A stretch of DNA of 64,000 nt from positions 179,679 through 243,678 of the forward strand of contig OZ244044.1 of assembly GCA_965215275.1 (NCBI GenBank). The letters are read 5' to 3'. A model generated the notes under the pieces. The model searched no databases and was not told the DNA's origin. It was given only the letters and a program-made list of their open reading frames with translations. Both the position numbers and the translations under genes were made by a program. Source of the stretch: Thermodesulfobacteriota bacterium (GTDB lineage Bacteria > Desulfobacterota_D > UBA1144 > Nemesobacterales > JAJCZQ01). Of this stretch, positions 4,689 to 61,917 are shown one piece after another; position 1 is the stretch's first letter, and each line of letters starts with the position of its first letter.

Positions 4689-4828
4689 TAATGCGGTCCT
4701 TTCCAAAACAATGAAGGAATTAAAATCTCTCAGTCAGAATAAAGGAATAATAACAAGTGAGAAACCAAGGATAATTCTATCGGTAGATGGTGATAATGAT
4801 TAAAATTTAAAATCTGAATTGCTTCAAA

Positions 4829-5104
4829 TCACCTGCCACCAGCTATAGCAGGAATTATAGAAATATTGTCATTTTGATTTAGTTTGGTGTTCTTCCCATC
4901 AAGAAACCGGATGTCTTCATTGTTAACGTATAAATTTATGAATCTTCTTACGTTTCCTTCTTCATCACATATTCTATCTTTAATACCGGGACATTCTTTC
5001 TCAAGTTCCTCTATCAGTTCATTAATATCCGAGGCAGTTACATTTATTTCGTCTCTATCTTTAGATAATTTTCTAAGTGGAGTTGGTATTCTTACAGATG
5101 GCAT
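4829..5104 (-). CDS. MoaD/ThiS-family ubiquitin-like sulfur-carrier protein; ends ...IIPAIAGG plus one extra Arg
   Basis: About 90 aa in a beta-grasp pattern (INLYVNNEDIRFLDG...NDNISIIPAIAGGR), with a Gly-Gly at the penultimate position. It lies 37 bp downstream of thrC on the same strand. Confidence 0.6.
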   Translation of the reverse strand: MPSVRIPTPLRKLSKDRDEINVTASDINELIEELEKECPGIKDRICDEEGNVRRFINLYVNNEDIRFLDGKNTKLNQNDNISIIPAIAGGR

Positions 5105-5141
5105 GTATATTTCTCCTGTTATAAATTCTACGTATAATTAA

Positions 5142-6377
5142 CTATTGTACTATATTTTTATACAATTCTTCAAATATTTCAATTTTAGATTCTATTATCT
5201 TTGGACTTGCTAATTTATTTACGATGGCGTCCTGAGTTTTTAAACCGTTACCGGTTATAGAAATAACGGTTGACTCATTAACGGATAGTTTTCCCTTTTC
5301 TATAAGTTTTTTAGTAACCGCTATAGTAACCCCACCGGCAGTTTCGGTATAAATTCCTTCTGTTTCTGCAAGCAGTTTTATTCCATCAATTATTTCTTGA
5401 TCAGACACATCTTCAGCCCAACCTCCGCTTTCTTTAATTACGGACATTGCATAAATTCCATCTGCGGGAGTACCAATTGCAAGTGATTTAGCAATGGTGT
5501 CGGGTTTTACTGGCTTAAACATATCCCAGTTGTTCTTAAATGCAGTGGAAATAGGTGAACATCCTGTAGCTTGAGCCCCATACATTTTTGTTCTGCCAGA
5601 CTCTACAAATCCTAATAGTTCAAATTCCTTTATAGCTTTCCATATTTTGGTCAGAAGCGAACCACTTGCCATTGGCACTATAATATTGTCAGGGACTTTC
5701 CAGCCAAGCTGCTCCATTATTTCAAAGGCATAGGATTTTGAACCTTCTGAATAATAAGGTCTGATGTTTATGTTAACAAATGCCCAGTTATATTTTCCTG
5801 CAATTTCACTGCAGAGCCTGTTTACATCATCATAAGTACCTTTGATCCCTATAAGATCAGTGCCGTACACGATACTGTTAACGACTTTTGATTGTTCAAG
5901 GTCGTGGGGAATAAAAATAAAGCTCTTTAAGCCACCTGATGCAGCAAGAGAAGATACAGAATTTGCAAGATTGCCGGTAGAGGCACAGGAAACGGTATCA
6001 AACCCAAATTCTCTGGCTTTGGATAAAGCAACTGAAACCACTCTGTCCTTAAATGACAAGGTCGGAAAACATACTGCATCATTCTTTATGTACAGATTTG
6101 AATGTCCTAGTGCCTTTGCCAGATTATCAGCTTTTATTAGAGGGGTATAACCGACTTTTTTGCCTATTTCTGGTTCATTATCAATGGGTAAAAGTTCAGC
6201 ATATCTCCAGATATTGTTCTTCCGGGATATAATATCTTCCTTTGTCAGGACTTTTTTAATCTCTTCGTAGTTGTATGATACCTCTAATGGACCAAAGCAT
6301 GTTTCGCAAACATATATTGGCTTAGCAGGATATTTTTCACCGCATTCTTTACACTTTAGACCTTTAATAAAACTCAT
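5142..6377 (-). CDS. thrC: Threonine synthase with an N-terminal Cys4 zinc ribbon
   Basis: SFKDR PLP-lysine motif. The N-terminus reads CKECGEKYPAKPIYVCETC. The ORF track gives a TTG start at 6443, but I prefer the ATG at 6377 (MSFIKGLKCKECGE). Confidence 0.8.
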   Translation of the reverse strand: MSFIKGLKCKECGEKYPAKPIYVCETCFGPLEVSYNYEEIKKVLTKEDIISRKNNIWRYAELLPIDNEPEIGKKVGYTPLIKADNLAKALGHSNLYIKNDAVCFPTLSFKDRVVSVALSKAREFGFDTVSCASTGNLANSVSSLAASGGLKSFIFIPHDLEQSKVVNSIVYGTDLIGIKGTYDDVNRLCSEIAGKYNWAFVNINIRPYYSEGSKSYAFEIMEQLGWKVPDNIIVPMASGSLLTKIWKAIKEFELLGFVESGRTKMYGAQATGCSPISTAFKNNWDMFKPVKPDTIAKSLAIGTPADGIYAMSVIKESGGWAEDVSDQEIIDGIKLLAETEGIYTETAGGVTIAVTKKLIEKGKLSVNESTVISITGNGLKTQDAIVNKLASPKIIESKIEIFEELYKNIVQ

Positions 6378-6417
6378 TTTTTCACAAGTTGAGGAGAGAT
6401 AGGATTGGAAAGAAAAA

Positions 6418-6843
6418 CTACCTTTTATTAACGGTTTTGTCAAAGCTACTTGAAGGTTTTATACCGTCTTTAGTAACTGTTACTTTAATAACCTTCTCTG
6501 ATATGATGATATTTTTGTTTTTTCTATACCTGCCTCCAACTACTACAGTGTCATTTTTATCAAATTCTGGTATTTCTGTAAGTTCCACATTTATGTTGTT
6601 TCCGTAATGATCGGCTAAAGTAAGGATTCCTTGCTTGTTTTCCAAATTCTTGATTTCTTCAACAAATCCCAGTACAACTACTTGTGCTCCATCGAACGCG
6701 ATAGGGGATATCTGAATTCTGGCGATCGAAGTTTTGATCCCTGTTATATTAAAAACAGGTTTCGGCTGTTCTTTCTTCTGACACCCGGCAAGAACGATTA
6801 ACGAGATACAAATTATAAGCAGTTTCGATATTTTAAAAGCCAT
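6418..6843 (-). CDS. Hypothetical lipoprotein
   Basis: Signal peptide with a LAGC lipobox (MAFKISKLLIICISLIVLAGCQ). Confidence 0.6.
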   Translation of the reverse strand: MAFKISKLLIICISLIVLAGCQKKEQPKPVFNITGIKTSIARIQISPIAFDGAQVVVLGFVEEIKNLENKQGILTLADHYGNNINVELTEIPEFDKNDTVVVGGRYRKNKNIIISEKVIKVTVTKDGIKPSSSFDKTVNKR

Positions 6844-6894
6844 TTTTTTAATAAATCAGGTAAATTCTATAAGTATATCTGAAGAGAGGAAAAA

Positions 6895-7686
6895 GTGTAT
6901 ATTTCAGAAGACGATAATTTAAGTATATACAGATTTAAAGTAGAAAACAGTGGTAAGAACTTTAATTACATAGTTAAATGCAATCAAACGGGAGAATGCG
7001 TTGTGATAGACCCGCTTGACCCGGTTCGATTGCTGAACTTTGTAAGAAAGAACGATATGAGAGTGTCTTATGTAATAAATACCCACGGTCACCCCGATCA
7101 CGTTGAGGGAAATAATCCCATAATTAAGGTTTTTTTGTCATCTAATATCTTAATACACGAACTTGGTATGGATTTTGTTGCACCAAGAGCGGAAGCATTA
7201 AAAGAAGGGGACGTTATAAGTTGTGGTAAACTTAAAATAGATGTTCTGCACACCCCGGGTCACTGCCCCGAACATATTTCTTTAATGATCGGCAGCAATA
7301 TATTTGTAGGAGACACTATTTTTGTCTCCGGATGTGGAAACACAAAGTTCAGAGGTAATACTGATGAACTCTATGAAACTTTCTCAAGTAAGCTGATGAA
7401 ACTGGAAGATGATCTTAATGTGTTCTGCGGGCATGATTATGCAAAAAATAATTTAGAATTTGCTTTAAGTATTGATCATAATAATCCTCATATAAACAGT
7501 AAATTAGAAGAAATTAAAAAACAAAATGAGGTTTTATCTACGATCGGAGAAGAGAAAAAATATAATCCTTTCATGAGAGTTGGTGAAAAAAGTCTGGTCA
7601 GTGCCTTAAAAGAGAAATACCCTGATATGAAGACAGATGAGAGGTCCGTGTTCATTAAATTAAGAGAGCTTAGAGATAACTGGTAA
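6895..7686 (+). CDS. MBL-fold metallo-hydrolase, glyoxalase II-like
   Basis: HxHxDH motif INTHGHPDHVEGN. Size is consistent with a hydroxyacylglutathione hydrolase-like enzyme. Confidence 0.7.
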   Translation: MYISEDDNLSIYRFKVENSGKNFNYIVKCNQTGECVVIDPLDPVRLLNFVRKNDMRVSYVINTHGHPDHVEGNNPIIKVFLSSNILIHELGMDFVAPRAEALKEGDVISCGKLKIDVLHTPGHCPEHISLMIGSNIFVGDTIFVSGCGNTKFRGNTDELYETFSSKLMKLEDDLNVFCGHDYAKNNLEFALSIDHNNPHINSKLEEIKKQNEVLSTIGEEKKYNPFMRVGEKSLVSALKEKYPDMKTDERSVFIKLRELRDNW

Positions 7687-24240: not shown

Positions 24241-26694
24241 TCAGGTCTTTATCCGAGACCTAATCTTCCTTCTTATCACAACAGATACAGGTATAAGCAT
24301 CAGCGATGCCACTGCTGTGAGCATATCAGGAACGGCTTCGCTCTGACCGGAGACCGCACATCCTCCTCCGCCTGTATCACTACCTGATGACGTTGGTCTT
24401 TGTGTCGGTGGTCTTGTTGTTGGTGGGTCTGTCGGTCCTGGCGGCGTAGTTGTTACCCTGATCGTAAATCTCAGCTCATCCGTATCTCCATCTTCGTCCG
24501 TTACCTTATATGTATAACTGCCAGAAGATACAGCAGTCGGTGTTCCGCTGATAACTCTGTCAGTTTCACTGAAAGCAAGTCCAGCAGGTAAACCAGTAGC
24601 AGGTAAAAGAGGGGACAGGCTGTAGGTCAGTTCTCCATTCCCTGCTGTTGCCTCAGGCAGTGTTTCTTTTATTGCAGTTCCCGGCACGTAATTCTTATCT
24701 GGTATGGTCCAGTTGTTAAACGTCGGCGTGTCCCCAGACATATGACCATAGACCTTTATGTTCCATGAGTGTAAGGTCCCCGTACCTGCAATTGAATTGT
24801 TAGTTATCTTCAAGGTCCACTCTCCAGCAGGGTCCGTTCCTAAGTGATTGGCTAAACCAAAACGATGTTCCCTGCCTGTGTACTTAAAGTCGTCTACAGT
24901 AAGAGATCCGTCAGATAAATGTGATAACGCTTCTGATGCATATTCCTCAGTGAGTTTTGACACGGTAGTATCGTCAGGAGAAGTTATTTCTATATCTAAA
25001 AAAGGAAAGAAAGGATGGGTAAAATTGATACCTATCTCTATAAATTCCGTAAATACCTCAGTGTCTGGTATATCTATATCAGGTACTGTCAGTGTGAAAA
25101 CAACTGAAACGTCTTCTGCGTTTTCCCCCGTTGTGAAGTCTGGTATAACCGTATTGATATTACCCGAGGAAACCGTCACGGGTTTCATTTGCGGTGGAAC
25201 GTTGGTCCAGCTTTCTGCAAGTTCCACTGCAGCTGCAGCGTCTACTGTGCCAAAAGTATCTACTGTGCCAAAACCGAACTTTGGATTGTAAAAATAATAC
25301 TCTGAATCAGAACCGTATTGAAGTGCTACTCTCTTCCATTCTTGGGTATCACCGGAACGGGAGCCCTGGCTGGCTGAACCTGCCAAGATCAGTTTCAGGT
25401 CTCGCCAGCTAAGATCACTGTTTACCTCTCTCATCAGTGCTGCAATTCCTGAAACGACCGCTGCTGAATTTGACGTTCCAGGGAACTCAAAAGTATAACC
25501 GTCGTTATTGTCGGTAGTTACAATACCGGAACCCGGTGCACATACCCATAGATTGTATCCCTCTTCTGAAAAGGAACTCTTAGTAACAGCGAGCGCATCC
25601 CTATCGATCTCTGATGAACATACGGTAGTTACTGCGTAGTAGTTGGAATACTCATCAAAATTAGCCTGGTCTGATCCTTCATGTCCGTCCCCTGCCGCCC
25701 ATACGTAAAACACCCCTTTACCACCAAATCCTTCTCTTATACCCGTTCTCACCCCTTCTTCCCACTCTGATGAAGCCTCTGTAAGAACGGGAAGGTCCTT
25801 CGGTCCCCAGTTGTTGACCGATACAGCAGTTATATCCTTATTACGGACCATGGCGTCCTTTGCATTAGCATCACTGAAGTTACCAGCTAAATTATAACTG
25901 TAGATGTTTGCCTCAGGTGCTACACCTCTTACTCCAAGGCTGTTATCACCCACTGCTGCTATAATGCCAGCTACACGTGTTCCACGACCACTGAAAGGAC
26001 TGTACAGATCACCATTCCCAGAGTAATCATGAGAAAGTGTGGTATCTACATTGTCAGCAAGGTCCTCATGGTCTGTGTCCATACCATGATCTACCACCGC
26101 TACGTTAATCCCAGCACCAAATACGGCATCATCCCAGACATCTTCTATGTTTATGTCTATATCTTGTCTGGCGGAGGTTTGGAATACCTTATCGCCACCT
26201 AATATTACATCAACCGCTGGAGATTCCAGATACCACTGACAGCCGTATAAGGGATCATTTGGAAAATTGGTAGTAATAATTGAACAGGTTTCAAAGAGTT
26301 GATTAGAATCAGCTAATTGAACTTGAACTCGATAGGATGTAGCACCACTGCTTCCTACAACGATATAGTACGTTCCCCGTCTGAGGTGAGTTTGTATAGA
26401 TATATTTCCTAGTAGCCTTTCATCACTTGGGTCCACTACTTCAGTAGTACTTGCTATCAGATCATCATTACTGTCACATACCTGTAGGCTGTATTCCTGA
26501 TCATTGGAGAAGGGGAAGGTTACCAATATATCTGCAATAAAATCTCCATTTATGTTTATCTGAAAGTAATGCGGATCAGCACCGGCAGCTAAACTTCCAT
26601 TGTGTGTTGGTCCTTGCACTCTCAACGTAGCTTCGGTCGTTGCACTGGAGTCACAGTTGTTAATGCTGGTCTTACCATATGCACTAATGGACAC
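24241..26694 (-). CDS. Kexin-like (S8B) subtilase-family surface protein, paralog 2. It has an N-terminal beta-sandwich-type pre-domain, a P-domain, one He_PIG repeat and the same C-terminal sorting-type signal. The full-length form would start at ATG 26758 if the C-tract length changed.
   Basis: Asp motif VVDHGMDTDHEDL. The His region is RGTRVAG, with no His. The Ser region is GTSNSAA. The P-domain ends in GEWTLKITNN...HSWNIKVYG. The C-terminus is GGGGCAVS-hydrophobic helix-RRKIRSRIKT. Confidence 0.75.
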   Translation of the reverse strand: MSISAYGKTSINNCDSSATTEATLRVQGPTHNGSLAAGADPHYFQININGDFIADILVTFPFSNDQEYSLQVCDSNDDLIASTTEVVDPSDERLLGNISIQTHLRRGTYYIVVGSSGATSYRVQVQLADSNQLFETCSIITTNFPNDPLYGCQWYLESPAVDVILGGDKVFQTSARQDIDINIEDVWDDAVFGAGINVAVVDHGMDTDHEDLADNVDTTLSHDYSGNGDLYSPFSGRGTRVAGIIAAVGDNSLGVRGVAPEANIYSYNLAGNFSDANAKDAMVRNKDITAVSVNNWGPKDLPVLTEASSEWEEGVRTGIREGFGGKGVFYVWAAGDGHEGSDQANFDEYSNYYAVTTVCSSEIDRDALAVTKSSFSEEGYNLWVCAPGSGIVTTDNNDGYTFEFPGTSNSAAVVSGIAALMREVNSDLSWRDLKLILAGSASQGSRSGDTQEWKRVALQYGSDSEYYFYNPKFGFGTVDTFGTVDAAAAVELAESWTNVPPQMKPVTVSSGNINTVIPDFTTGENAEDVSVVFTLTVPDIDIPDTEVFTEFIEIGINFTHPFFPFLDIEITSPDDTTVSKLTEEYASEALSHLSDGSLTVDDFKYTGREHRFGLANHLGTDPAGEWTLKITNNSIAGTGTLHSWNIKVYGHMSGDTPTFNNWTIPDKNYVPGTAIKETLPEATAGNGELTYSLSPLLPATGLPAGLAFSETDRVISGTPTAVSSGSYTYKVTDEDGDTDELRFTIRVTTTPPGPTDPPTTRPPTQRPTSSGSDTGGGGCAVSGQSEAVPDMLTAVASLMLIPVSVVIRRKIRSRIKT

Positions 26695-33113: not shown

Positions 33114-35204
33114 ATGTCGTTGGAAATAGACTCGGAGAGAGTACGCAACATAGCTGTAATAGGTTCCCATGGAGTTGGAAAGACCAGTTTGTCAGAAGGA
33201 TTACTTTTCATTAGCGGTGCCACAAGTACGCTGGGAAAAGTGGATGATAACAGTTCGGTCCTTGATCACACAAAAGAAGAAAAGCAGAGAAAAATGTCCT
33301 TGACTTCTCACGTTGCCTATTTTGAGCATGAAGGACATCTTATAAACATTATCGACACCCCTGGGTTCTCGAATTTCCTGTTCGATGCAGATAGTGCGAT
33401 CAAAGTAGCCGATGCGGTTATCTTTGTGGTAAATGGAGTTGAAAATTCAGGAGAACAGCTTGACAGATACTGGAGCATGGCGGCTGAAAACGACGTTCCG
33501 AGGATCTTGTTTATGAACAATATGGACAAAGAACATGCTAATTTCGAGAAATCCTTGGAATATGTAGAGAAGAGCCTCAATATCAAAACAGTTCCGATCA
33601 CAATACCTATGGGACAGGGAAATGACTTTGGAGGAGTGATAAACCTTTTTGAGATGAAAGCCTTTGTATATAAAGGTGAGAACAAGTTCGACGTTCTTGA
33701 AATCCCGGAAAATATGGTTCAGATGGCAAACGACTGCTATGATAAGGTCCTTGAGACCATAGCCGAACAGGATGACGAGACCCTGGTCAAATATCTTGAA
33801 GGTGAGGAGATCGGCCACGATACCGTTATCGATATGTACAAGAAAGGCGTAAAGGAATCAACGATCTATCCTATGCTGATAGGCTCTTCAAAAAAGCTTC
33901 TGGGCCTATACTCTCTTTTGCAGGATATCAAGAGCCTGCTGCCGTCCCCGACCGAGGGAGAAGATATGGTCTGCAAAAATCCCGATGGGGATGACGTTAC
34001 AAGGTCACCAGACAGTACAGGTCCTTCCTCTTTATATATATTTAAAACGGTATCTGACCCTTTTGCAGGCAAAATAAGTATCGGAAAGGTCCTGTCAGGT
34101 ACTGTCAAAGCTGACTCAACGCTCTACAATTCCCACACCAGTTCTAAGATAAAGATCTCTAATCTGTCTCGATTGATCGGAAAGAACGAACATAAGATAA
34201 ACGAGGCAAAAGCAGGGGATATAGTCGGATTGAGCAAGCTCAAGGACGTGAATACGGGTACGACCTTGAGCGACGTTGACCATCCGTGCGTGATCGCTCC
34301 AGTGGAATTACCGCAGGCCGTCCTTTCTTTTGCCATAGAACCTAAAACAAGGGCCGATGAGGATAAACTTACGGTTTCTCTCTCAAGGATAATGGAGGAG
34401 GACCCCACGATAAAATTTCATAAGGAACCGGAAACGAACGAATTCCTTATTTCAGGTACAGGGCAGACACACGTTGAAGTAACGGTTGAAAAACTGCGGA
34501 ACTCTTATGGAGTGAACGTTAATCTGAAAACCCCCAAGGTACCGTACAGAGAGACCATTAAGGGCAGATCTGAAGCAGAAGGTAAGTACGTCAAGCAGAC
34601 CGGGGGCAGAGGCCAGTACGGTGTTGCCAGACTGCGTATAGAACCTCTTCAGAACGGAGAAAGTTACGAATTTGTAAATGAAATAGTTGGCGGGGTTATA
34701 CCGAAAAATTTTATTCCCTCAGTTGAAAAAGGGGTACAGGACGCAATGAAGAAAGGTGTTCTTGCAGGATTTCCGGTGACGGACGTTAAAATTTCCCTGT
34801 TCGATGGTAAATATCATCCCGTGGACTCTTCCGACGTTGCTTTCCAGATAGCGGGTTCAATGGGATTTAAAAAGGCAATGGAGAACGCCAGCCCGGTACT
34901 CCTGGAACCGATCATGAAAATGAACATACACGTCCCGGAGGACAATATGGGGGATGTGATCGGCGATATAAACGCCAGAAGGGGCAAGGTGGCAGGGGTG
35001 GACTCTTCTGTGACCGGTCATCACCTTATCGACGCTCTGGTGCCAATGTCGGAAGTTATGACCTACGCACCTGAACTGAGGTCCATTACGAGCGGCAGAG
35101 GAAGTTTTACAATGGAATTTTCCCGCTATGAAGAAGTGCCGTCACAGGTATCCGCCGAAATAGTGGAACAGTTCAGGACCGCACAGGAACAAACTGATAC
35201 CTGA
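33114..35204 (+). CDS. Elongation factor G-family GTPase paralog (EF-G2-like)
   Basis: Five-domain EF-G architecture with G motifs GSHGVGKTS, DTPGFSNF and NNMDKE. The G1 and G3 motifs diverge from canonical AHVDAGKTT and DTPGHVDF. There is a GAGAGG Shine-Dalgarno. Confidence 0.7.
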   Translation: MSLEIDSERVRNIAVIGSHGVGKTSLSEGLLFISGATSTLGKVDDNSSVLDHTKEEKQRKMSLTSHVAYFEHEGHLINIIDTPGFSNFLFDADSAIKVADAVIFVVNGVENSGEQLDRYWSMAAENDVPRILFMNNMDKEHANFEKSLEYVEKSLNIKTVPITIPMGQGNDFGGVINLFEMKAFVYKGENKFDVLEIPENMVQMANDCYDKVLETIAEQDDETLVKYLEGEEIGHDTVIDMYKKGVKESTIYPMLIGSSKKLLGLYSLLQDIKSLLPSPTEGEDMVCKNPDGDDVTRSPDSTGPSSLYIFKTVSDPFAGKISIGKVLSGTVKADSTLYNSHTSSKIKISNLSRLIGKNEHKINEAKAGDIVGLSKLKDVNTGTTLSDVDHPCVIAPVELPQAVLSFAIEPKTRADEDKLTVSLSRIMEEDPTIKFHKEPETNEFLISGTGQTHVEVTVEKLRNSYGVNVNLKTPKVPYRETIKGRSEAEGKYVKQTGGRGQYGVARLRIEPLQNGESYEFVNEIVGGVIPKNFIPSVEKGVQDAMKKGVLAGFPVTDVKISLFDGKYHPVDSSDVAFQIAGSMGFKKAMENASPVLLEPIMKMNIHVPEDNMGDVIGDINARRGKVAGVDSSVTGHHLIDALVPMSEVMTYAPELRSITSGRGSFTMEFSRYEEVPSQVSAEIVEQFRTAQEQTDT

Positions 35205-48727: not shown

Positions 48728-50141
48728 AGAAGAATGCGGGATATTTGGCATTTTCGGCAACCCTGAAGCGGCAAATCTTACCTATCTGGGACTGTATTCA
48801 TTACAGCACAGAGGCCAGGAAAGTGCGGGGATCGTAACTGCCGATGGATATAAACTGCACGTTCACAGAGCTATGGGACTTGTAACGGACGTATTTTCTG
48901 AAGGTGTTATAAACAAAAAGCTCAGCGGGAAAAGTGCAATTGGTCACGTCAGGTACTCTACTTCCGGATCAAGTGACAATAAAAATACCCAGCCGATAAC
49001 CGTGGTCTATGAAAAAGGAGAACTTGCGATATCTCACAACGGCAATCTCACTAACGCAAGAATGCTCAGGCAGGACCTTGAAAAGCAAGGGTCGATCTTT
49101 CAGTCCACTACGGATACGGAGGTTATAACGCATCTTATTGCCAAGTCCGAAGAGGAAGAGGTGGTCAATCGTATAATCTGTGCCTTAAATCAATGCAAAG
49201 GTGCGTATTCACTGCTGTTCCTTACCCATGATAAACTGCTTGCCGCAAGGGACCCGAGGGGGTTCAGACCCCTTGTACTCGGGAAGCTGAACAAAAACTA
49301 CGTTATTTCATCAGAAACGTGTGCATTTGAGCTGATCGGGGCTGAGTACGTAAGGGAGGTGGAACCCGGTGAAATAATAGAGATCGATGAAAGCGGACTT
49401 ACTTCCCACAAACCCTTTCCTAAAGTGGAACCTGCTCCATGTGTTTTTGAACTGATATACTTTGCACGACCCGACAGCTTTTTTAACGATAAGAACGTAT
49501 ACATGGTAAGAAAGGAACTTGGCAGGCAGCTGGCAATTGAGCATCCTGCCGATGCAGATATAGTCATTGCCGTCCCGGATTCAGGTATGCCTGCTGCGAT
49601 CGGATTTGCCGAAAAACTCAATATTCCGATAGATATGGGATTTCTGAGAAGTCACTATGTCGGACGAACCTTTATTGAACCTCAGCAGTCAATAAGGGAT
49701 TTTGGGGTAAAACTGAAACTTAATGCAATAAAGGAAGTGATAAAGGACAAAAGGGTCGTAGTGGTCGATGATTCGATCGTACGAGGGACCACCAGCAGAA
49801 AGATCGTAAAGATGATAAAGGACGCAGGTGCCACGGAGGTACATATGAGAATAAGTTCCCCTCCTATGAAGCATCCGTGTTATTATGGTATTGATACGCC
49901 TTTAAAGGACGACCTGATCGCAAATTCACTTACCATTGAAGAGACAAATCATTATATAACCTCTGATTCGCTTGGCTATCTGAGTATCGATGGAGTACAG
50001 AAAGCGGTTGACAACTATAACAGAAGCCAGAAAAAGGGATCTTACTGTAAAGCCTGCTTTACGGGTGAATACTTAGCGGAACTGACCGATATTAAAATGA
50101 ACCTGGACCAGCTCGACCTGTTTTCCAAGCGGGTCGGTTAA
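48714..50141 (+). CDS. purF: Amidophosphoribosyltransferase
   Basis: N-terminal CGIFGI Ntn-amidotransferase, a PRTase motif and a C-terminal Cys cluster. Confidence 0.9.
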
Positions 50142-52819
50142 TTGATCTTTTCAAGGTTTTCCAGGGCACTTTCGATCTTATAGATCTGAAAAGCATATTC
50201 ATCTACCTTGTTCTTTTCCTTTTCTATAACGTCTTCAGGAGCTTTTTTTAAAAACTCCCCGTTCTTCAGTTTTTTAGATGCCTTGTCAATGCTGACGTTC
50301 AGCTTTTCCAAGCTCTTTCTAAGCCTCTTTATCTCTTCCTCTACGTCTATTGAACCATCAACGGAGAGATATATCTCCGTGCCAGGTATAACTGCCCTGA
50401 TCATTCTTTTTACTTCTTCATCAGCTTTTATGAACTTATGATCGCTCACTTTGGCCTGACTGCAGATAACCTCGGCGTTGAGGCTTATTATCTCTTTTAT
50501 ACTATCGTTACCGGGATGGAACTTTATCGTTACCTGACTGGAGGGATGCAGACCTGTATTAGCTCTCATGTTCCTTATACACACGACTATGTCCTTTACG
50601 TACTCGATCTCTTCATGCTCCTTTTCAAAGACGTACTTATCCGAGTATTCAGGGTAGCTGTCAAGCAGAACGCTGTCTTTGCCGGTTGGGGTTATATTAT
50701 AGCTTTTTAATATCTGATACAGCTCTTCTGTAACAAATGGAGAGATCGGATGAAGCAGCTTGATGGAATCGTACAGGACCTTTAACAGTACCGCCTGGGT
50801 ATTTTCCTTTTTTTCCGGATCATCACCATAGAGATACTGTTTGGAGAACTCAATATACCAGTCACAGTAGTCGTTCCATATAAAATGATAGATCGTATGA
50901 GCGACCTTGTCGTACTCATGACCTGAATAATACGATCGAACTTCTTTCACGGCACCGTTAAGTCTGGACAAGATCCATTTATCTGTGGTCTTAAGTAAGG
51001 CCGGGTCTACGTTGATATCGTATGACCGCTTAACATCAAGGTTCAGCGTTACAAATCTGAAGGCGTTCCATATCTTGTTCATAAAGTTCCTGTACCCTTC
51101 TATAACTGGAAGCGCGAGATTTATATCGTTACCCTGTGAAGCCAGGGCAGTAAGGCTGAACCTGATGGAATCCGCACCGTACTTGTCTATCACCTGCAGG
51201 GGATCTATTGCGTTGCCTTTGGTCTTGCTCATCTTTTGTCCGGTCTCATCTCTAATCAGTCCATGGATGTACACGTCCCTGAAGGGGACCTTCTTCGTGA
51301 ACTTCAGACCCATCATTATCATTCTTGCCACCCAGAAGAATATGATGTCGAATCCCGTTACCAGACATGAAGTCGGGTAGTATTTTTTAAGGTCGTCCGT
51401 GCTTTCCGGCCATCCCAGCGTTGAGAACGGCCATAATCCGGAAGAAAACCACGTGTCCAGAACGTCTTCGTCCCTTTCCAGTTCAACTTTTTTACCGTAG
51501 TGAACTCTGGCTGATGCCACCGCCTCCTCTTCAGTACGTTCCACGAATATCTTTCCATCAGGTCCATACCACGCGGGTATCCTGTGTCCCCACCATAACT
51601 GTCTTGATATGCACCATGGTTCGATATTTCTCATCCATTCAAAGTAGGTATTCTCCCAGTATTTGGGATAGAACCTTATCTCGTTGTTCTCAACTGCTTT
51701 AATGGCACGTGAGGCCATTTCCTTGGTATCCACGTACCACTGATCGGTAAGCCAGGGTTCTATCGCAACTTCTGACCTGTCTCCGTACGGAACTGTATGA
51801 ACTGTATTTTCAACTTTAGCTATTAATTGTAACTTATTTAAATCCTTTACTATTTCTTCTCTGGCTTTATATCTGCTCAATCCGATGTATTTAGCAGGAA
51901 CGTTACTGTTCAATCTTGCTTCGTGATCAAGGATATTTATCATCTCCAGATCGTGCCTTTTACCCACTTCAAAGTCGTTAAAGTCATGAGCCGGAGTGAT
52001 CTTAACGGCCCCACTGCCCTTTTTCGGGTCACTGTACTCGTCTGCAATTATCGGGATCTTTCTGTTGACGATGGGCAGTATCGCCTGTTTTCCTACCAGG
52101 TCCTTGTATCTTTCGTCATCTGGATGCACGGCTACAGCGGTGTCTCCGAGCATGGTCTCAGGTCTTGTGGTGGCTACAGTCAAATAACGGTCTTTCTCAC
52201 CTTCCAGAGGGTATTTTATGTACCAGTAACTCCCCTTCTCTTCCAGTTGCTGAACTTCCAGGTCGGATATTGCCGTGCATAACTTCGGGTCCCAGTTTAC
52301 AAGCCTTTTATCCTTGTAGATAAGTCCTTCATTATACAGGTCGACGAAAGCTTTTATCACTGAACCGGACAGTCCTGCGTCAAGGGTAAACCTTTCCCTG
52401 TTCCAATCGGGTAATGCACCGAGTTTTTTCAGCTGATTTATTATCTGTCCGCCGGAATTTTCCTTCCATTGCCATACTTTTTCTACAAATCGCTCACGAC
52501 CTAAAGACCTTCTGTCTGTTTTTTCCTTACCTAACTCCCTTTCCACCACCATTTGCGTGGCAATTCCCGCGTGGTCCATGCCCGGAACCCAGAGAACGTC
52601 AAATCCAGACATTCTCTTGTATCTGACGATCATATCCTGAAGAGTATTGTTAAGTGCGTGTCCTATATGAAGTGAACCGGTTATGTTCGGGGGAGGGATT
52701 ACTATGGAAAAAGGCTCTTTATCGCCCTGGGGATCGGATCTGTAATACCCATTGTCCATCCACAGGCTATAGTTCTTATCCTCTATTGCTGCAGGATCAT
52801 AGCTTTTTTCCATTTCCAT
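50138..52819 (-). CDS. valS: Valine--tRNA ligase
   Basis: HIGH motif (GSLHIGHALN), KMSKS motif and a C-terminal coiled coil. Confidence 0.9.
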   Translation of the reverse strand: MEMEKSYDPAAIEDKNYSLWMDNGYYRSDPQGDKEPFSIVIPPPNITGSLHIGHALNNTLQDMIVRYKRMSGFDVLWVPGMDHAGIATQMVVERELGKEKTDRRSLGRERFVEKVWQWKENSGGQIINQLKKLGALPDWNRERFTLDAGLSGSVIKAFVDLYNEGLIYKDKRLVNWDPKLCTAISDLEVQQLEEKGSYWYIKYPLEGEKDRYLTVATTRPETMLGDTAVAVHPDDERYKDLVGKQAILPIVNRKIPIIADEYSDPKKGSGAVKITPAHDFNDFEVGKRHDLEMINILDHEARLNSNVPAKYIGLSRYKAREEIVKDLNKLQLIAKVENTVHTVPYGDRSEVAIEPWLTDQWYVDTKEMASRAIKAVENNEIRFYPKYWENTYFEWMRNIEPWCISRQLWWGHRIPAWYGPDGKIFVERTEEEAVASARVHYGKKVELERDEDVLDTWFSSGLWPFSTLGWPESTDDLKKYYPTSCLVTGFDIIFFWVARMIMMGLKFTKKVPFRDVYIHGLIRDETGQKMSKTKGNAIDPLQVIDKYGADSIRFSLTALASQGNDINLALPVIEGYRNFMNKIWNAFRFVTLNLDVKRSYDINVDPALLKTTDKWILSRLNGAVKEVRSYYSGHEYDKVAHTIYHFIWNDYCDWYIEFSKQYLYGDDPEKKENTQAVLLKVLYDSIKLLHPISPFVTEELYQILKSYNITPTGKDSVLLDSYPEYSDKYVFEKEHEEIEYVKDIVVCIRNMRANTGLHPSSQVTIKFHPGNDSIKEIISLNAEVICSQAKVSDHKFIKADEEVKRMIRAVIPGTEIYLSVDGSIDVEEEIKRLRKSLEKLNVSIDKASKKLKNGEFLKKAPEDVIEKEKNKVDEYAFQIYKIESALENLEKIN

Positions 52820-55800: not shown

Positions 55801-57040
55801 GTTCTTTAATGACCTCATCCAGTGCGTCCCAGACTTTCGGGTCTTCCTGCTCAACGAGTTTCTTTGCTATTTTAATGGTTAACGCGTAGCCCCATTCCTC
55901 GAGTTTCTGATAGATAAATGGCTTGAACAGTTCAAGTGCCATCTGCTTCGGCAATCCGCACTGATGGAGTTTCAGTTCCGGACCGACCGTGATCACGGAC
56001 CTTCCAGAGTAATCCACCCTCTTACCTAATAGGTTCTGTCTGAACCTTCCCTGTTTTCCTTTTATTATATCGCTAAGGCTTTTTAAAGGTCTGCGGTTGT
56101 GTCCAAGTACGGGTCTGCCTCGTCTGCCGTTCTCAAGGAGTGCATCCACTGATTCCTGAAGCATTCTCTTTTCATTTCTTACGATAATGTCAGGTGCTCC
56201 TAGTTCCGTCAGTTTTTTCAGTCTGTTGTTCCTGTTTATGACCCTTCTGTACAGGTCGTTCAGGTCGGAGGTTGCAAACCTGCCTCCGTCCAGTGGTACC
56301 AGTGGTCTGAGGTCCGGCGGCAGAACGGGGATCATTGTTAAGATCATCCACTCCGGCTTGTTCTTTGACTTTCTGAACGCGTCACATACCCTCAGCCTTT
56401 TTGCTATCCTTGCTCTTTTGATCAGATCTTTCGTTCTCTTGATCTCGTCTTTCAGATCCTCGGACAGGGCGAGCATATCCCTGTTCTTAAGCATTTCCCT
56501 GATGGTTTCAGCACCCATGCCGACTTTGAAAGTCTGACCGAATTCGTCAAGCAGCTGTCTGTATTCTTCTTCGTTTATGACCTCGCCGTACTTTAATTTC
56601 GTAGGACCGGGGTCGTAAACGACGTAAGCCTCAAAATACAAGGTCTTCTCAAGGTCTTTCAGGGTCATGCCCAGAAGCATGCGGATGATCTTCAAAAACC
56701 ATATATGAACGGTCGGTGATACGAGTTTAATATGGGCCATTCTTTCGCGTCTGACCTTTGAGGATATGACTTCAACCCCGCATTTTTCACACGTTATACC
56801 TCTGTGCTTTAACCTCTTGTACTTTCCGCAGGTGCATTCGTAGTCTTTGACCGGCCCGAATATCTTGGCACAGAACAAACCGTTCCTCTCTGGTTTGAAA
56901 GTTCTGTAATTGATGGTTTCCGGTTTGGCTATCTCACCCCAAGACCACTCTTTTATCTTTTCTGGTGAAGCAATGGATATCTTTACCGTCGAATAATCGG
57001 ATGGGTTCTTCGGTTTTTCAAAAAGGGTATCTATTTCCAC
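52877..57040 (-). CDS. rpoC: DNA-directed RNA polymerase subunit beta'
   Basis: Zinc-binding Cys motifs and the NADFDGD active site. Confidence 0.95.
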
Positions 57041-60000
57041 TTATTATCTAAACCTCCATTATTATTTTCTGTTTGCTCTTCGATCAGATCAACGTTCAGC
57101 ACCAGGGATTGAAGCTCCTTCTGAAGCACTTTAAATGATTCAGGAAGCCCAGGTTCGAAGTTCAGGTCACCTTTCACTATTGAATCAAATATCCTGGTAC
57201 GTCCCACTACGTCATCGGATTTAAAAGTAAGGAATTCCTGCAGGGTATAGGAGGCACCATAAGCTTCAAGTGCCCAGACTTCCATTTCTCCAAGTCTCTG
57301 TCCGCCAAAATGTGCCTTACCGCCCAGCGGCTGCTGGGTCACGAGCGAGTAAGGTCCGATCGCCCTTGCATGTATCTTTTCTTCCACGAGATGGTGGAGT
57401 TTCAGCATATACATTATCCCGACCGTCACTTTCTGGTCAAAGGGTTCTCCTGTATGACCGTTGAACAGTATTGTCTTACCGTCCATCGGGAGGTCAGCTT
57501 CCTTGTACAGTTCTTTGATCTCGCTTTCCTTTGCTCCGTCAAATACGGGTACTTTGATCGGAATACCGTCTTTAAGGTCCTTGGCAAGTTCAACCACTTC
57601 ACTATCGCTCAGGGAATCCAGGAACTTTAAAAACTCCGCAGAACCTGAATAATAGGTTTTAAACTTCTTTCTGAGCGAATCAGCACTGAACTCTGCTTCA
57701 ATGTATTCGTTCAGCTGTCTTCCCAGTTCCTTGGCCACCCATCCCAGATGGGCTTCAAGTACCTGCCCCACGTTCATTCTGGACGGTACCCCAAGTGGAT
57801 TCAGGACCATGTCGACCGATCTTCCATCAGGCAGGTAGGGCATATCCTCTTCCGCCAGTATTTTTGACACGACCCCTTTATTGCCATGTCTGCCGGCCAT
57901 CTTATCCCCGACCTGGAGTTTCCTTTTAGCGGCTAAATAAACCTTGACTATTTTCAGGACCCCTGGCTGCAGTTCATCCGGTTTTTGCAGATTTGATATT
58001 TTCCGCTCGTATGCTTTTTTAACTATATTTATATGCTCCGATGTACTGTCAACGATCGCCTTCACCTCGTTCTCGACCTTTGATGATCCTGCAACGTTTA
58101 TATCCGGCAGTTTTTCGAACGGCACCTCGTTTAAGATATCTTCGGTTATGACCTCATCCTTTTTTAATATGGTCTTTCTGGCCAGTTTAAAACTGGATGC
58201 GGATCTTTTACCAGCTATCAGCTTGTTTACTTTACTTCTGGCGTCTTTTTCCAATCTGAGAACGTCTTCTTCCCTTTCCTGTTTTAATTTTGCGATATCA
58301 GAGGTATCTATCGCTTTGGAAATACTGTCCTTATCAACTGCCCGGGATACTAACACCTTGACGTCAATGACCGTTGCATAGGTCCCGGGGGACGCTTTTA
58401 AAGAAGTATCTTTAACGTCACCGGCCTTATCACCGAATATGGCCTTCAGAAGTTTTTCCTCGGGAGAGAGCTGGGTTTCACCTTTCGGGGATATTTTTCC
58501 TACAAGTATATCTCCCGGCTTGACCGTGGCCCCTATTCTTATAATTCCGTGTTCATCCAGGTTCCTCAGGGATTCTTCCCCTGCGTTCGGAATATCCCTT
58601 GTGATCTCCTCCTTGCCCAGCTTGGTTTCACGCGCCACGCATTCCTCTTCTTCTATGTGGATCGATGTAAAAGAATCATTTTTTAAAAGTCTTTCACTGA
58701 CAAGTATGGCGTCTTCGAAGTTATATCCTCCCCATGGCATAAAGGCCACGGTTATGTTCTTACCCAGGGCCAGTTCGCCTTCATCCGTGGACGGTCCATC
58801 AGCCACCACCTGTCCTTTTTTTACCATCTGCCCGCTCGACACTATAGGCTTCTGGTTCCAGCAGGTGCTTTGGTTCGATTTCTGGAACTTGATCAGATTG
58901 AATATATCGACACTTCCATTTGTCCCTTCGGTGCCACTTGACCTTACCACGATCTTGTTTGCATCAACGTAATCCACTATACCGTCATTCTTTGCAATGG
59001 CGGTAACACCTGAATCCTTGGCAACTGTGCTTTCCATACCCGTACCTACGATCGGAGAACTCGTTTTTATAAGCGGGACCGCCTGACGCTGCATGTTCGA
59101 TCCCATTAATGCCCTGTTAGCGTCGTCGTGCTCTAAGAACGGTATCAGCGAAGCAGATACGGAGACCAGCTGGTTAGGTGATACGTCCATCAGCTCGACC
59201 CTTTCACTTTTTTCCCTTTTGAACTCACCTTCATGACGCGCGGAGATGAACTCGGCCTTGAACACGCCTTTATCATCAACGGGAGCATTTACCTGAGCTA
59301 TAACGAATTTTTCTTCTTCATGTGCGCTTAAATGCACGATCTCATCAGTTACTAACCTGTCCTTTACAACTCTGTAAGGCGTCTGAATAAACCCATATTG
59401 ATTTACCGTTGCGTAGGTGCTCAGGCTGGATATTAACCCGATATTCGGGCCTTCAGGCGTTTCAATGGGACATATCTTTCCATAATGTGATACATGGACG
59501 TCACGCACTTCAAATCCTGCTCTTTCACGTGTTAAACCACCAGGACCCAAGGCACTGAGCCTTCTCTTATGGGTGATCTCGGACAGGGGATTGGTCTGGT
59601 CCATGAACTGTGAAAGTTGTCCGGTGTTGAAAAATTCCTTCACGACCGAAGTGACGGTCTTCGGCATTAATATCTCACTTGGCATCATATCTTCTACCGG
59701 CTGGTAGCTCATCTTTTCCTTTACTGATTTGGCAAGTCTTTTAACGCCGTGGTAGAACCTGTCCTCTATAAGTTCTCCTATTGTCTTTACTCTTCTGTTG
59801 CCAAGATGATCTATATCGTCCGTACTGCCCTTGCCTCCCTGAAGGTCGAGCAGATATTTGATCGTACGGCATATATCCTCTTTGCTTAAGTGAAGATGAT
59901 CGTCAGGAAGGTCCATTCCCAGCTTATAGTTGATCTTTATCCTGCCGACCTTTGAAAGCCTGTAGGTCTCGGGATTAAAGAACATGTTCTCAAAAAAATC

Positions 60001-61491
60001 CCTGGCCACCTTTAACGTAGGCGGGTCTGTAGGTCTGAACCTTTTGTAGATCTCCTTTATTGCATCTTCGGCCGTCTTGGTCTTATCCTTATCATCAAGG
60101 AGCGTGTTCCTGAGAGAAGCAGAAACAGTATCATCGTCTATGTAAAAGACCTTGAACTTTTCTACGCTGTTTTTCTTCAGACCATCTATTACTTCGTCTG
60201 TGATTGGTTCATTGAAATCAACAAGTATTTCACCCGTGTCCGGGTCCATTATATCCTCAGCACAAAAATATTTTTCCTTATCTGTGGTCAGACCCGTGAT
60301 CTCGTTCTTATCTATCGGAAAGACGTCAACTCCGGCTTTTTCAAGCTTTCTTAACGTTCCTTGCCCGAACCTCATATCTTTGCGGACAAGCGTGTCACCT
60401 GATTTTTTATCAACTATATCCACACTGGCCTTCTGGTATTTTATAGTTTCTTGATTGATCTCTTTTTCAAATCCTTCCTCCGTTATATGAATGACCTCAA
60501 CGGGATAATAGTAGTTCATTATCTCACGTGGACCATAACCCATGGCCTTGAGAAGTATAGTGACGTGGAATTTTTTCTTTCTGTCTATCCTTACGTGCAT
60601 CAGGTCCTTTGAGTCAAACTCAAAATCCAGCCATTTACTGCCTTCCTGGGGAATTATCCTTGCAAAGAAGGAACCTTTACCAAGCGAACTGTCCTTGCTC
60701 TTACCGAAGAACACCCCCGGCGAGCGATGTAGCTGGTTTACTATTACTCTTTCGGTTCCGTTTATAATGAAGGAACCATTACCGGTCATAATGGGAAGTT
60801 CGCCAAAGTAAACTTCCTGTTCCTTTATCTCCCGGATGTTCTTCTTATGTGATATTTCTACGGTTGCACCGGCTGCCTCTAATTTCTTCCTGACATCCTT
60901 AGCTTCTTCCTCTTCGGAGTAATGCTCCACCTGCACGCCGTCTTCAGGGTCCTTAGAGACCAGTGCGATCAGGTCCTTGGCCCCTTTAACTCCCAGACCG
61001 GCAACTTCCTTTACGGTTTCGATGACCTTATTTTTATCTTCACCGATCTGCTTCAGAGCAACCGTGTATGAAACGTCCCATACTATAAGTCTGAAAGTCA
61101 CGTGCAGAGGAGAAACGTAGGTGTATCCTTTTAACCTGCATTCCCCTTCTTCATACTTGGGGTCGTCCAGTTTGTACCTTACATACTCCAGGCTGGATCT
61201 CTTGTTACTGTCCTCAACGGGAAAGACCGTCTTAAAAGCTGCATGCAGCCCTTTTGGCTCCCTGTCTTCGTGTTTTATTTCAGCCTGTAGGAAATCTCTG
61301 TAGGACTTGGTCTGAACTTCCAGCAGATGTGGGATATTTAAAACGTTCGGTATTTTAGAAAAAACCTTTCTATACAGGTGTCTCTCGTGTTTCTGCGCTC
61401 TCAGGTCAGATACGCTGTCTTTGCCAGCAGCTGTGAGCTGTGCCGTTATATGTCTTTCGTTTTTTTGTGCTCTCAAATTAGATACCCTCAA
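57031..61491 (-). CDS. rpoB: DNA-directed RNA polymerase subunit beta, carrying an in-frame L7/L12 C-terminal-domain-like insertion of about 75 aa and a duplicated N-terminal segment
   Basis: Conserved beta-subunit regions throughout. Residues about 141-217 ([20 protein letters not shown]...[13 protein letters not shown]) resemble the RplL C-terminal domain ([22 protein letters not shown]...[13 protein letters not shown]). Confidence 0.9.
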
Positions 61492-61527
61492 AAAATGTAA
61501 TTAATAAAGATGTAATAAATGAAAAAG

Positions 61528-61917
61528 CTATGATATCTCTACGGTTGCACCGGCTGATTCCAGTTTATTCTTAATTTCCTCAGCTTCTTCTTTGTTTATA
61601 TCATCTTTAACGTTTTTTGGGGCACTTTCTACGAGTTCTTTGGCTTCTTTGAGCCCTAACGAGGTAACCTCTCTCACGGCTTTGATGACCTGGATCTTAT
61701 TTTCTCCAAAGTCCTTTAAAATAACGCTTACTTCGGTTTTTTCTTCGCCACCTGGACTTTCCTGATCCGCAGCGGCACCTGGCACAGCTGCAACTGCCAT
61801 CTGCGGTGCTGCCTGAATATCGAATTTTTCCTCTATCTCCTTGATCAGCTCTGATACCTCGAGCATGGTGGCTTTTTCCAGGTACGTAATTACATCGGAT
61901 TTACTTATATCAGCCAT
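61528..61917 (-). CDS. rplL: 50S ribosomal protein L7/L12
   Basis: Ala/Pro-rich hinge and a C-terminal domain ending ...[10 protein letters not shown]. Confidence 0.95.

Follow-up and report, generated by a model that had tools for sequence, protein, structure and literature searches.

Few proteins in biology are as highly conserved as RpoB, the β subunit of bacterial RNA polymerase. Lineage-specific insertions in it are rare and have been catalogued at five sites, in uD2, uD3, uD4 and uD5, and most of them have the BEAN fold (CATH 3.90.105.10) (PMC11515920); one insertion, SI1, serves as a docking site for PcrA/UvrD (PMC8318588). Here we describe an insertion of another kind, found in the rpoB gene of a 64,000-nucleotide stretch of contig OZ244044.1 from a Thermodesulfobacteriota bacterium (hereafter the window): a complete C-terminal domain of ribosomal protein bL12, encoded in frame within rpoB, next to rplL, the gene for bL12 itself. 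Like βSI1/β-i4, βSI2/β-i9 and the BEAN inserts, it is a folded in-frame domain in a surface loop of the conserved β subunit, is found in one lineage and absent from its sisters, and is less conserved than the core. It differs from them in its location, the N-terminal segment of uD1 (presumably E. coli residues about 106-115), in its fold, which is that of the L12 C-terminal domain instead of BEAN (BBM2), in a probable donor gene that is still recognisable next door, and in its range, which covers a few related uncultured lineages and not a phylum. The insert is thus a sixth β site, with a different fold and a traceable donor, compared with the five catalogued (PMC11515920). Text searches of the literature returned no report of an L12 domain in RpoB, although a prior mention is possible in insertion catalogues outside their coverage, and a 2024 review of the extraribosomal functions of bacterial ribosomal proteins contains nothing of this kind.

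The other points of comparison come from the L12 family. The C-terminal domain of bL12 has the same β-α-α-β-α-β fold, and its core residues are kept in the insert, but the insert is a single copy embedded in RpoB without the dimerisation/L10-binding domain or the hinge, RplL-invariant residues of the GTPase-contacting helices are replaced, P91 is lost and β2 carries a 6-residue extension. MRPL12, an L12-family protein, binds human POLRMT outside the ribosome and is thought to regulate its activity, although its necessity is disputed (PMC7939475); there, a free full-length protein associates non-covalently with a single-subunit phage-type polymerase, whereas here the domain is covalently inserted in a multisubunit enzyme. 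We also observed many non-ribosomal proteins (230-1070 aa; P0131-P0152, e.g. P0133, P0135, P0142, P0147 and P0152) with 2-7 tandem, well-conserved L12 C-terminal domains, some of them with LRV/HEAT repeats and one (P0197) with a Hsp70-like N-terminus apparent by eye, while HMMER matches place 13-24 L12-matching stretches on giant proteins of 3500-7900 aa. Such proteins look like an unexplored reuse of a factor-binding module. As in RpoB, the domain is employed outside the ribosome, but in multiple copies (about 47-70 bits per copy) and unrelated to transcription, as opposed to one divergent copy (48.6 bits) in the polymerase.

The elements on which the comparison rests are the following (window coordinates; equivalences to E. 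coli RpoB are presumed).

57031..61476, minus strand: rpoB coding sequence, 1481 aa, with all Rpb2 Pfam domains found
61528..61917, minus strand: rplL (bL12, 129 aa; PF16320 and PF00542), neighbour of rpoB and probable donor
61069..61104, minus strand: RpoB β1-lobe strand 3, including the R equivalent to E. coli R101; runs into L12 β1
60850..61068, minus strand: L12 C-terminal-domain insert, 73 aa (YTVALKQ...AGATVEIS), in frame within rpoB
60850..60876, minus strand: 3' patch of the insert, codons A-G-A-T-V-E-I-S, 25/27 identical to rplL 61531-61557
60841..60849, minus strand: HKK linker ([HDQN]-K-K, with KK invariant in the clade), from the alignment of six insert-bearing RpoBs
60799..60840, minus strand: RpoB β1-lobe strand 4, invariant in the insert clade and the outgroups
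60820..60828, minus strand: IKE motif, equivalent to E. coli I117-K118-E119, in strand 4; the insert ends 7 residues before it

Within the open reading frame (ORF), the two parts of the Rpb2_1 match are separated by a match to the Pfam profile PF00542 (Ribosomal_L12) at residues 142-213, which cover positions 1-66 of the 67 in the profile (E 1.1e-11 in context; E 1.1e-12 and 48.6 bits alone, the cut-off being 25.9). Likewise, BLASTP aligns the 76-residue segment with the adjacent RplL at 33/72 identities (46%), with one 6-residue gap (E 9e-17). These two results bear out an earlier reading made from the sequence alone (the sequence-only reading), which had proposed an in-frame insertion homologous to the C-terminal domain of rplL; the extent it gave, 60841-61071 or about 77 aa, was essentially right, as the domain plus HKK shows. 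From the first C-terminal-domain strand to the final rplL codon, the insert spans the whole globular domain, in the order β1-α4-α5-β2-α6-β3, with a 6-residue extension (VEHYSE) at β2, and both its flanks are RpoB strands. A Pfam scan of RpoB returned no PF16320, and the N-terminal dimerisation/L10-binding domain and hinge of bL12 are not in the insert. Its net charge is acidic, from -5 to -7.

At the DNA level, the insert and the homologous part of rplL (61531-61731, VSVILK...VEIS) are 64.6% identical over 198 codon-aligned nucleotides and 50% identical at third positions. A repeat search detected a 60-nt direct repeat (60850-60909 and 61531-61590) with 82% identity, which contains the 3' patch. 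The partner of this patch in rplL had been placed at 61528-61554 with 26/27 identities; the stop codon had been included, and the figures are 61531-61557 and 25/27, or 25/26 for the string then quoted. About a dozen residues had been supposed to separate the flanking blocks in E. coli. Relatives without the insert have about 10, in agreement with the E. coli loop, which we take to be REAPEGTVKD.

An AlphaFold2 model of the insert based on an RplL alignment (predicted local distance difference test, pLDDT, 86.8) has strands (E) and helices (H) at E2-10, H15-26, H30-42, E48-53, H56-68 and E72-79. When this model was compared with the PDB by Foldseek, the top matches were L7/L12 structures (1dd3, 2zjq, 3j9y, 8yeq and 1ctf; root-mean-square deviation 1.9-2.4 Å), with template modelling (TM) scores normalised by target of 0.76-0.88, or 0.81-0.88 on domain-sized targets. 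The next match was ClpS, a known look-alike of the L12 C-terminal-domain fold, with a TM score of about 0.7 and 10-19% identity. As the RplL alignment could bias the first model, a second one was made of RpoB residues 41-470 from 120 RpoB fragments and no RplL rows, and it gave the same insert fold (pLDDT 76-93). The modelled insert is thus a split β-α-β domain of the L12 C-terminal type. In this context model, strand 3 of the β1 lobe runs unbroken into L12 β1 (model residues 86-109), and L12 β3 continues through the KK linker into strand 4 as one strand (model residues 169-193). The model therefore predicts that a rigid ribbon of two strands carries the domain, as opposed to a flexible tether. 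It suits the tip of a hairpin because its N- and C-terminal strands are neighbours in the L12 sheet.

The insert occupies the loop between strands 3 and 4 of the β1 lobe, so that its earlier assignment to the β lobe was correct. The equivalence of IKE and R101, as well as the replaced span (E. coli about 106-115), follow from an alignment to what we take to be the E. coli RpoB sequence. In the split β-α-β topology of L12, β3 should be an edge strand, and the free edge available to Tudor domains would then be prolonged, not covered. The surroundings of this loop are well described: I117-K118-E119 sit on the edge-exposed strand 4, which builds an intermolecular sheet with the Tudor-like Mfd-RID, R101 and Q99 take part in the Mfd contact, and the strand-3/strand-4 loop accommodates a register shift of strand 4 upon Mfd binding (PMC3001067). 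CarD-RID binds the same β1 lobe, whose position is close to the upstream edge of the bubble (PMC4593161). Every insert-bearing RpoB has REIKEQEV and FRLI unchanged; as both IKE and the R101 equivalent are thus invariant in the clade, the docking determinants for Mfd and CarD appear to be kept. The structural element is the same as the Mfd-RID/CarD-RID docking site, with strand 4 and IKE intact, but its loop, 3-10 residues long in the polymerases studied, is replaced here by a 73-residue domain. Separately, the β2/SI1 region at 60200-60260 (RpoB about 410-430) carries the hairpin motif D-P-x-T-G-E-I-L, which is the PcrA/UvrD Tudor-domain interaction motif (PMC8318588). Judged by its motifs, the RpoB of the window would have two Tudor-docking elements, one of them beside the L12 insert.

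The insert is not restricted to the window. RplL relatives at 99, 93, 82 and 77% identity lie on contigs that hold rpoB genes of 1454-1481 codons, and the insert was found at the identical site in seven other assemblies, which represent five further lineages.

L083 and L084: insert-bearing loci from two ENA samples (coverage 14x and 10x)
L085, L086, L088 and L089: insert-bearing loci from four Logan runs
L087: insert-bearing locus from NCBI GCA_964622285.1

A precomputed PF00542 match is also present, at the corresponding position, on the RpoBs of L083 and L085-L088. All carriers show the same alignment pattern, FRLI[IV]W[DE][VL]S, then Y...VEIS, then xKKx IREIKEQEV, and RpoB identity within the insert clade goes down to 83%. 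In L085 (locus span 3079-7473), the insert has 7 extra residues (ETDAEAK) in the acidic β2-α6 loop, which shows that the acidic loop before α6 tolerates expansion. Five outgroup lineages (L098, L090/L091, L092, L094, which is labelled Thermodesulfobacteriota, and L081), with RplLs 74-82% identical, lack the insert: their rpoB has 1371 codons where complete, and the loop reads TPEDQEEERT or PEDSEQEKT. The alignment of orthologues that the sequence-only reading had recommended thus finds six lineages with and five without the insert at the same site, the sister lineages keeping a loop of about 10 residues. Judging from these comparisons, there was a single insertion event, on the stem lineage of a small group of uncultured Thermodesulfobacteriota whose monophyly is deduced from RpoB and RplL identities, not from a formal tree.

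Direct searches of 5.8 billion proteins (word index, insert with and without flanks), GTDB species representatives and JGI metagenomes found no insert-bearing RpoB, and neither did HMMER, run exhaustively on 1.84 billion representatives at 50% identity; as the direct searches missed the known carriers, which were reached only via RplL, those negatives say little about independent L12-in-RpoB events. The closest RpoB fragments from the direct searches have a short loop at the insert site. Several candidates were rejected: matches that seemed to span the insert, such as L021 (Roseateles), were gapped alignments whose translation shows no insert; the long proteins P0145, P0159 and P0176 from the HMMER search are not RpoB; and three JGI matches are ordinary RplLs.

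In all 15 pairs of six orthologues, the ratio of nonsynonymous to synonymous divergence (dN/dS) of the insert lies between 0.10 and 0.33, compared with 0.08-0.10 for the rest of rpoB and 0-0.13 for the C-terminal domain of rplL, and its dN exceeds that of the remaining rpoB sequence 2.5- to 3.5-fold. The proportion of nonsynonymous differences (pN) in the insert is lower than that of synonymous ones (pS) in the five pairs tested (P 6e-7 to 0.035). It also exceeds the pN of the remaining gene, with P 2e-9 to 1.5e-3 for four pairs and 0.054 for the most closely related one. No frameshift, truncation or loss occurs across lineages with dS of at least 1, and the lone indel is the 7-residue expansion in L085. 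The insert is maintained by purifying selection, under a constraint looser than, or different from, that of either parent. Its conservation is uneven: 15 of 43 positions are invariant in the β1-α4-α5 half versus 21 of 30 in the β2-α6-β3 half (Fisher P 0.004), and helices 4 and 5, with 3/10 invariant positions each, are the least conserved part. The conserved half includes an insert-specific acidic loop, E-x-Y-S-D/E-E-x-E, as well as K104 and D105. Together with Q60, L89, E100 and the KK linker, the E-x-Y-S loop, K104 and D105 are the invariant residues by which the insert departs from the RplL consensus.

In ribosomal L12, nuclear magnetic resonance has located the contacts with GTPases at residues 66-70 and 80-85 and the contact with L11 at K95, with a Kd of 0.1-0.4 mM (PMC3505967). 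We compared this face in six inserts with 129 RplLs, using E. coli L12 numbering. Six residues that are 96-100% conserved in RplL are changed in all six inserts (I66 to N/S/D, Q67 to K/A/E, S77 to G/N, L80 to V/A, P91 to S/D/G and K100 to E), including positions 66, 67 and 80, which are 100% conserved in the 129 RplLs. Other changes are partial: K70E and E82G each occur in three inserts and K95E in two, including that of the window. By contrast, V56, L58, G62, K65, V68, V75, L78, G79, K81, L86, A103, L110, E111, G114, A115 and E118 are retained. The inserts thus do not show the conserved contact residues (66-70, 80-85 and K95) of a ribosomal stalk. The replacement of invariant RplL residues and the variability of helices 4 and 5 suggest that the ancestral binding face has decayed and is drifting, which makes the translational-GTPase recruitment or coupling proposed by the sequence-only reading unlikely.

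As regards the age of the insert, identical residues in its first 45 codons share their codon with the resident rplL in 8 of 19 cases, against 7.1 expected (that is, at chance, the synonymous sites being saturated). This saturation over the first two thirds of the insert, together with its sharing by lineages with dS of at least 1, indicates that the insert is old. An old duplication of the 3' end of the neighbouring gene had been proposed, and the saturated synonymous sites, the completeness of the domain and a shared VEIS terminus support it. The accompanying suggestion of gene conversion fares less well, a short 3' tract being possible but not required. We rejected conversion as the only explanation of the 25/27 patch, since every insert and every rplL conserves it. 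Because the inserts of L086-L088 are nearer to the rplL of the window (23-24/27) than to their own rplL (19-20/27), the patch seems to exist mainly because the last strand is strongly conserved in insert and rplL alike. One short conversion event on the branch of the window, L083 and L085 is possible; the GGT that bears on it is also found in outgroup L098.

Two side observations concern the recombination itself. A 711-nt contig that looks alphaproteobacterial (L082, positions 1-711; ENA ERZ27254861 k141_4151817; P0192) fuses RpoB residues 1-111, at RLIVFDV, to an L12 C-terminal domain; the fusion ends at the L12 stop, and its join falls within a 10-nt microhomology, TTCGACGTCG, in the same hairpin as the insert. 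This join may be the structure expected of a tandem-duplication junction produced by illegitimate recombination between rplL and the rpoB hairpin, or it may be a chimeric contig; it hints that a later deletion after such a tandem duplication would yield an in-frame insert. In addition, a forced MAFFT alignment paired the RplL segment 'VILKDF...' with the RpoB hairpin strands 'RLIVWDV...' instead of the insert. This faint likeness of the hairpin to the beginning of the L12 domain may be due to chance, or may be microhomology of the kind that guided the original recombination.

Where the domain came from can be weighed against two other explanations. That rplL and rpoB reads were joined in a chimeric assembly would fit the adjacency of the two genes, their shared 25/27 patch and the likeness of the unrelated contig L082 to such a join. 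The copy, however, shares only 65% identity with rplL, keeps the reading frame at both borders and is predicted to fold, and since it occurs at the same position in seven other assemblies from ENA, Logan and NCBI, that is, from different samples and pipelines, with a divergence among orthologues that tracks the rest of rpoB, we regard the chance of an artefact as negligible; the sequence-only reading was right to discard a trivial assembly join. The domain might instead have been imported from the rplL of another organism or from a non-ribosomal tandem-L12 protein. Many multi-L12-domain proteins exist, the first 45 codons resemble the resident rplL at synonymous sites no more than chance would give, the insert is as close to Puniceicoccales RplLs (46-47%) as to its own RplL (46%), with a short segment at 62% to P0121, and GC content at third codon positions is 0.54 in the insert versus 0.40 in the C-terminal domain of rplL. 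But the insert value is near the 0.50 of rpoB, as expected after long residence, and a candidate donor lies only 681 nt upstream in the same orientation. Moreover, the end of the insert coincides with the final codon of rplL, VEIS (with an ATA codon) terminates every insert and every rplL of the clade, as opposed to VELS in all outgroup loci examined, and codon identity is in excess in the 3' third (11 of 14 identical residues over the last 21 codons, against 5.2 expected; P about 0.001, for a region chosen post hoc). A foreign origin is thus highly improbable, and from these characters we infer the rplL of the clade itself as the very probable donor.

What the domain does is less clear-cut. 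The scenario we propose is that the 3' half of rplL, with the whole bL12 C-terminal domain, was copied into the adjacent rpoB in the stem of the clade, where it would have replaced a loop of about 10 residues at the tip of the strand-3/strand-4 hairpin of the β1 lobe. The domain would project rigidly from the upstream face of the polymerase, beside the IKE edge strand used by the Tudor domains of Mfd and CarD. After its capture, it would have been kept folded by purifying selection and repurposed: the surface that catches GTPases would have decayed and become variable between lineages, and the newly conserved part would comprise the extended β2 with its acidic loop, α6 and β3. We are close to certain of the descriptive part of this explanation, which comprises the insertion with its homology, fold, site, occurrence in the clade, selection and uneven conservation, whereas donor, rigid geometry and function are inferred. 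The sequence comparisons and models make it fairly probable that the insert is a co-opted, rigid, lineage-specific surface module which makes or tunes a protein contact at the β1 lobe. Contact with a protein partner is the most likely role, and the insertion site makes Mfd/CarD-type factors the obvious candidates, although the partner may be another one. A neutral passenger, which landed by chance in a permissive surface loop, lacks a function of its own and is conserved only because a misfolded insert would harm an essential enzyme, is a less likely explanation that we nevertheless take seriously. It would account for the elevated dN of the insert relative to the rest of rpoB, the decay of the ancestral functional face, the variability of the loop in length and sequence among bacteria, the expansion tolerated in L085 and the ability of sister lineages to manage without the insert. 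Yet a clean deletion should be easy and harmless, and six lineages at saturated synonymous divergence show no loss, frameshift or truncation; there are also the invariant residues foreign to the RplL consensus, and conservation is concentrated in one half of the domain, which suggests a surface beyond the core. A polymerase-borne L12 domain that keeps its ribosomal role, binding EF-Tu, EF-G, IF2, RF3, LepA or the stalk base for recruitment or coupling, seems improbable to us. The insert is a true homologue of a factor-binding domain and is kept by selection, K65, V68, I/V69, K/R73, K81 and K84 of the contact face are retained, MRPL12 offers a loose precedent at the mitochondrial polymerase (PMC7939475), and an EF-G paralogue is encoded in the window at 33114-35204 (this gene may also be the housekeeping copy). 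On the other side, no insert retains I66, Q67 or L80, the charge or size changes K70E and E82G are found in half of the inserts, the window has E in place of the L11-contacting K95, and the exposed positions of α4 and α5 are the most variable, the opposite of a conserved binding face. In addition, the affinity of L12 (0.1-0.4 mM) relies on 4-8 flexible ribosomal copies (PMC3505967), compared with one copy predicted to be rigid here, and the polymerase of mitochondria, which has a single subunit, is not related to RpoB. The insert thus probably does not act as a ribosome-like factor-recruiting stalk, and it is more doubtful still that a built-in stalk head engages the L11 stalk base of the following ribosome or a translational GTPase, perhaps an EF-G/LepA-type paralogue dedicated to it.

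Several points weigh against the co-option of a domain from the neighbouring gene. VEIS also occurs in 6 of 116 other close RplLs, and as the insert is no nearer to its own RplL than to unrelated ones, its attribution to that donor depends on adjacency and a few characters. The geometry is the secondary structure of an AlphaFold fragment model. A dN/dS of about 0.2 could mean just that the domain is kept folded inside an essential enzyme, and the conservation of the last 10 codons could partly come from conversion by the slowly evolving rplL. Finally, the retained residues of the GTPase face leave some factor binding possible.

The surrounding operon reads nusG'-rplK-rplA-rplJ-rplL-rpoB-rpoC on the minus strand of the window. 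The rpoB start is the TTG at 61474-61476; the program-listed ORF (57031..61491) opens at a TTG at 61491, which belongs to the Shine-Dalgarno region (TTGAGGG) and is not the actual start. GAGGG (61485-61489) and the start TTGAGAG are identical base for base across seven related loci, and the gene call of L083 begins at the TTG equivalent to 61474-61476. The rplL-rpoB spacer is about 50 nt long (61477-61527), which is too short for an E. coli-type attenuator, and a scan of the whole 64 kb with Rfam found no family at gathering score; a ribosomal-protein leader ahead of rplJ or rplK is likewise missing from the matches. At the 5' end of rpoB, a 36-nt segment over the translation start is duplicated (61378-61413 and 61450-61485, minus strand, 28/36 identical), resulting in an N-terminal extension of roughly 23 residues, the ancestral TTG start being now CTG in the downstream copy. 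This extension is common to the window and L083 and absent from L085-L088 and the outgroups, and is a second, younger local duplication within rpoB. Elsewhere in the window, the EF-G-family gene (33114-35204, plus strand) encodes all five EF-G domains and stands alone, far from any str operon. Downstream of rpoC lies, at 50138-52819 (minus strand), a gene for a class I aminoacyl-tRNA synthetase with a Val_tRNA-synt_C arm, probably valS, and not rpsL-rpsG-fusA. Positions 1296-4688 (plus strand) and 24241-26694 (minus strand) each encode a large subtilase (S8) that combines a proprotein-convertase P-domain with He_PIG Ig-like repeats.

Within this clade, a complete ribosomal-protein domain appears to have been captured from the upstream gene of the same operon, by an insertion that can be dated between sampled sister lineages. 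It would be a natural example of the onset of domain accretion, with a local duplication, a permissive hairpin tip, the loss of an old face and the gain of a new conserved one. If factor binding were true after all, it would represent a new mechanism of transcription-translation coupling and, in the case of a stalk head, a hard-wired, NusG-independent link between the two processes. As the insert sits on the hairpin whose loop flexes for Mfd binding, it provides a natural test of the tolerance of this docking platform, and a new partner of the upstream polymerase face may come to light through it.

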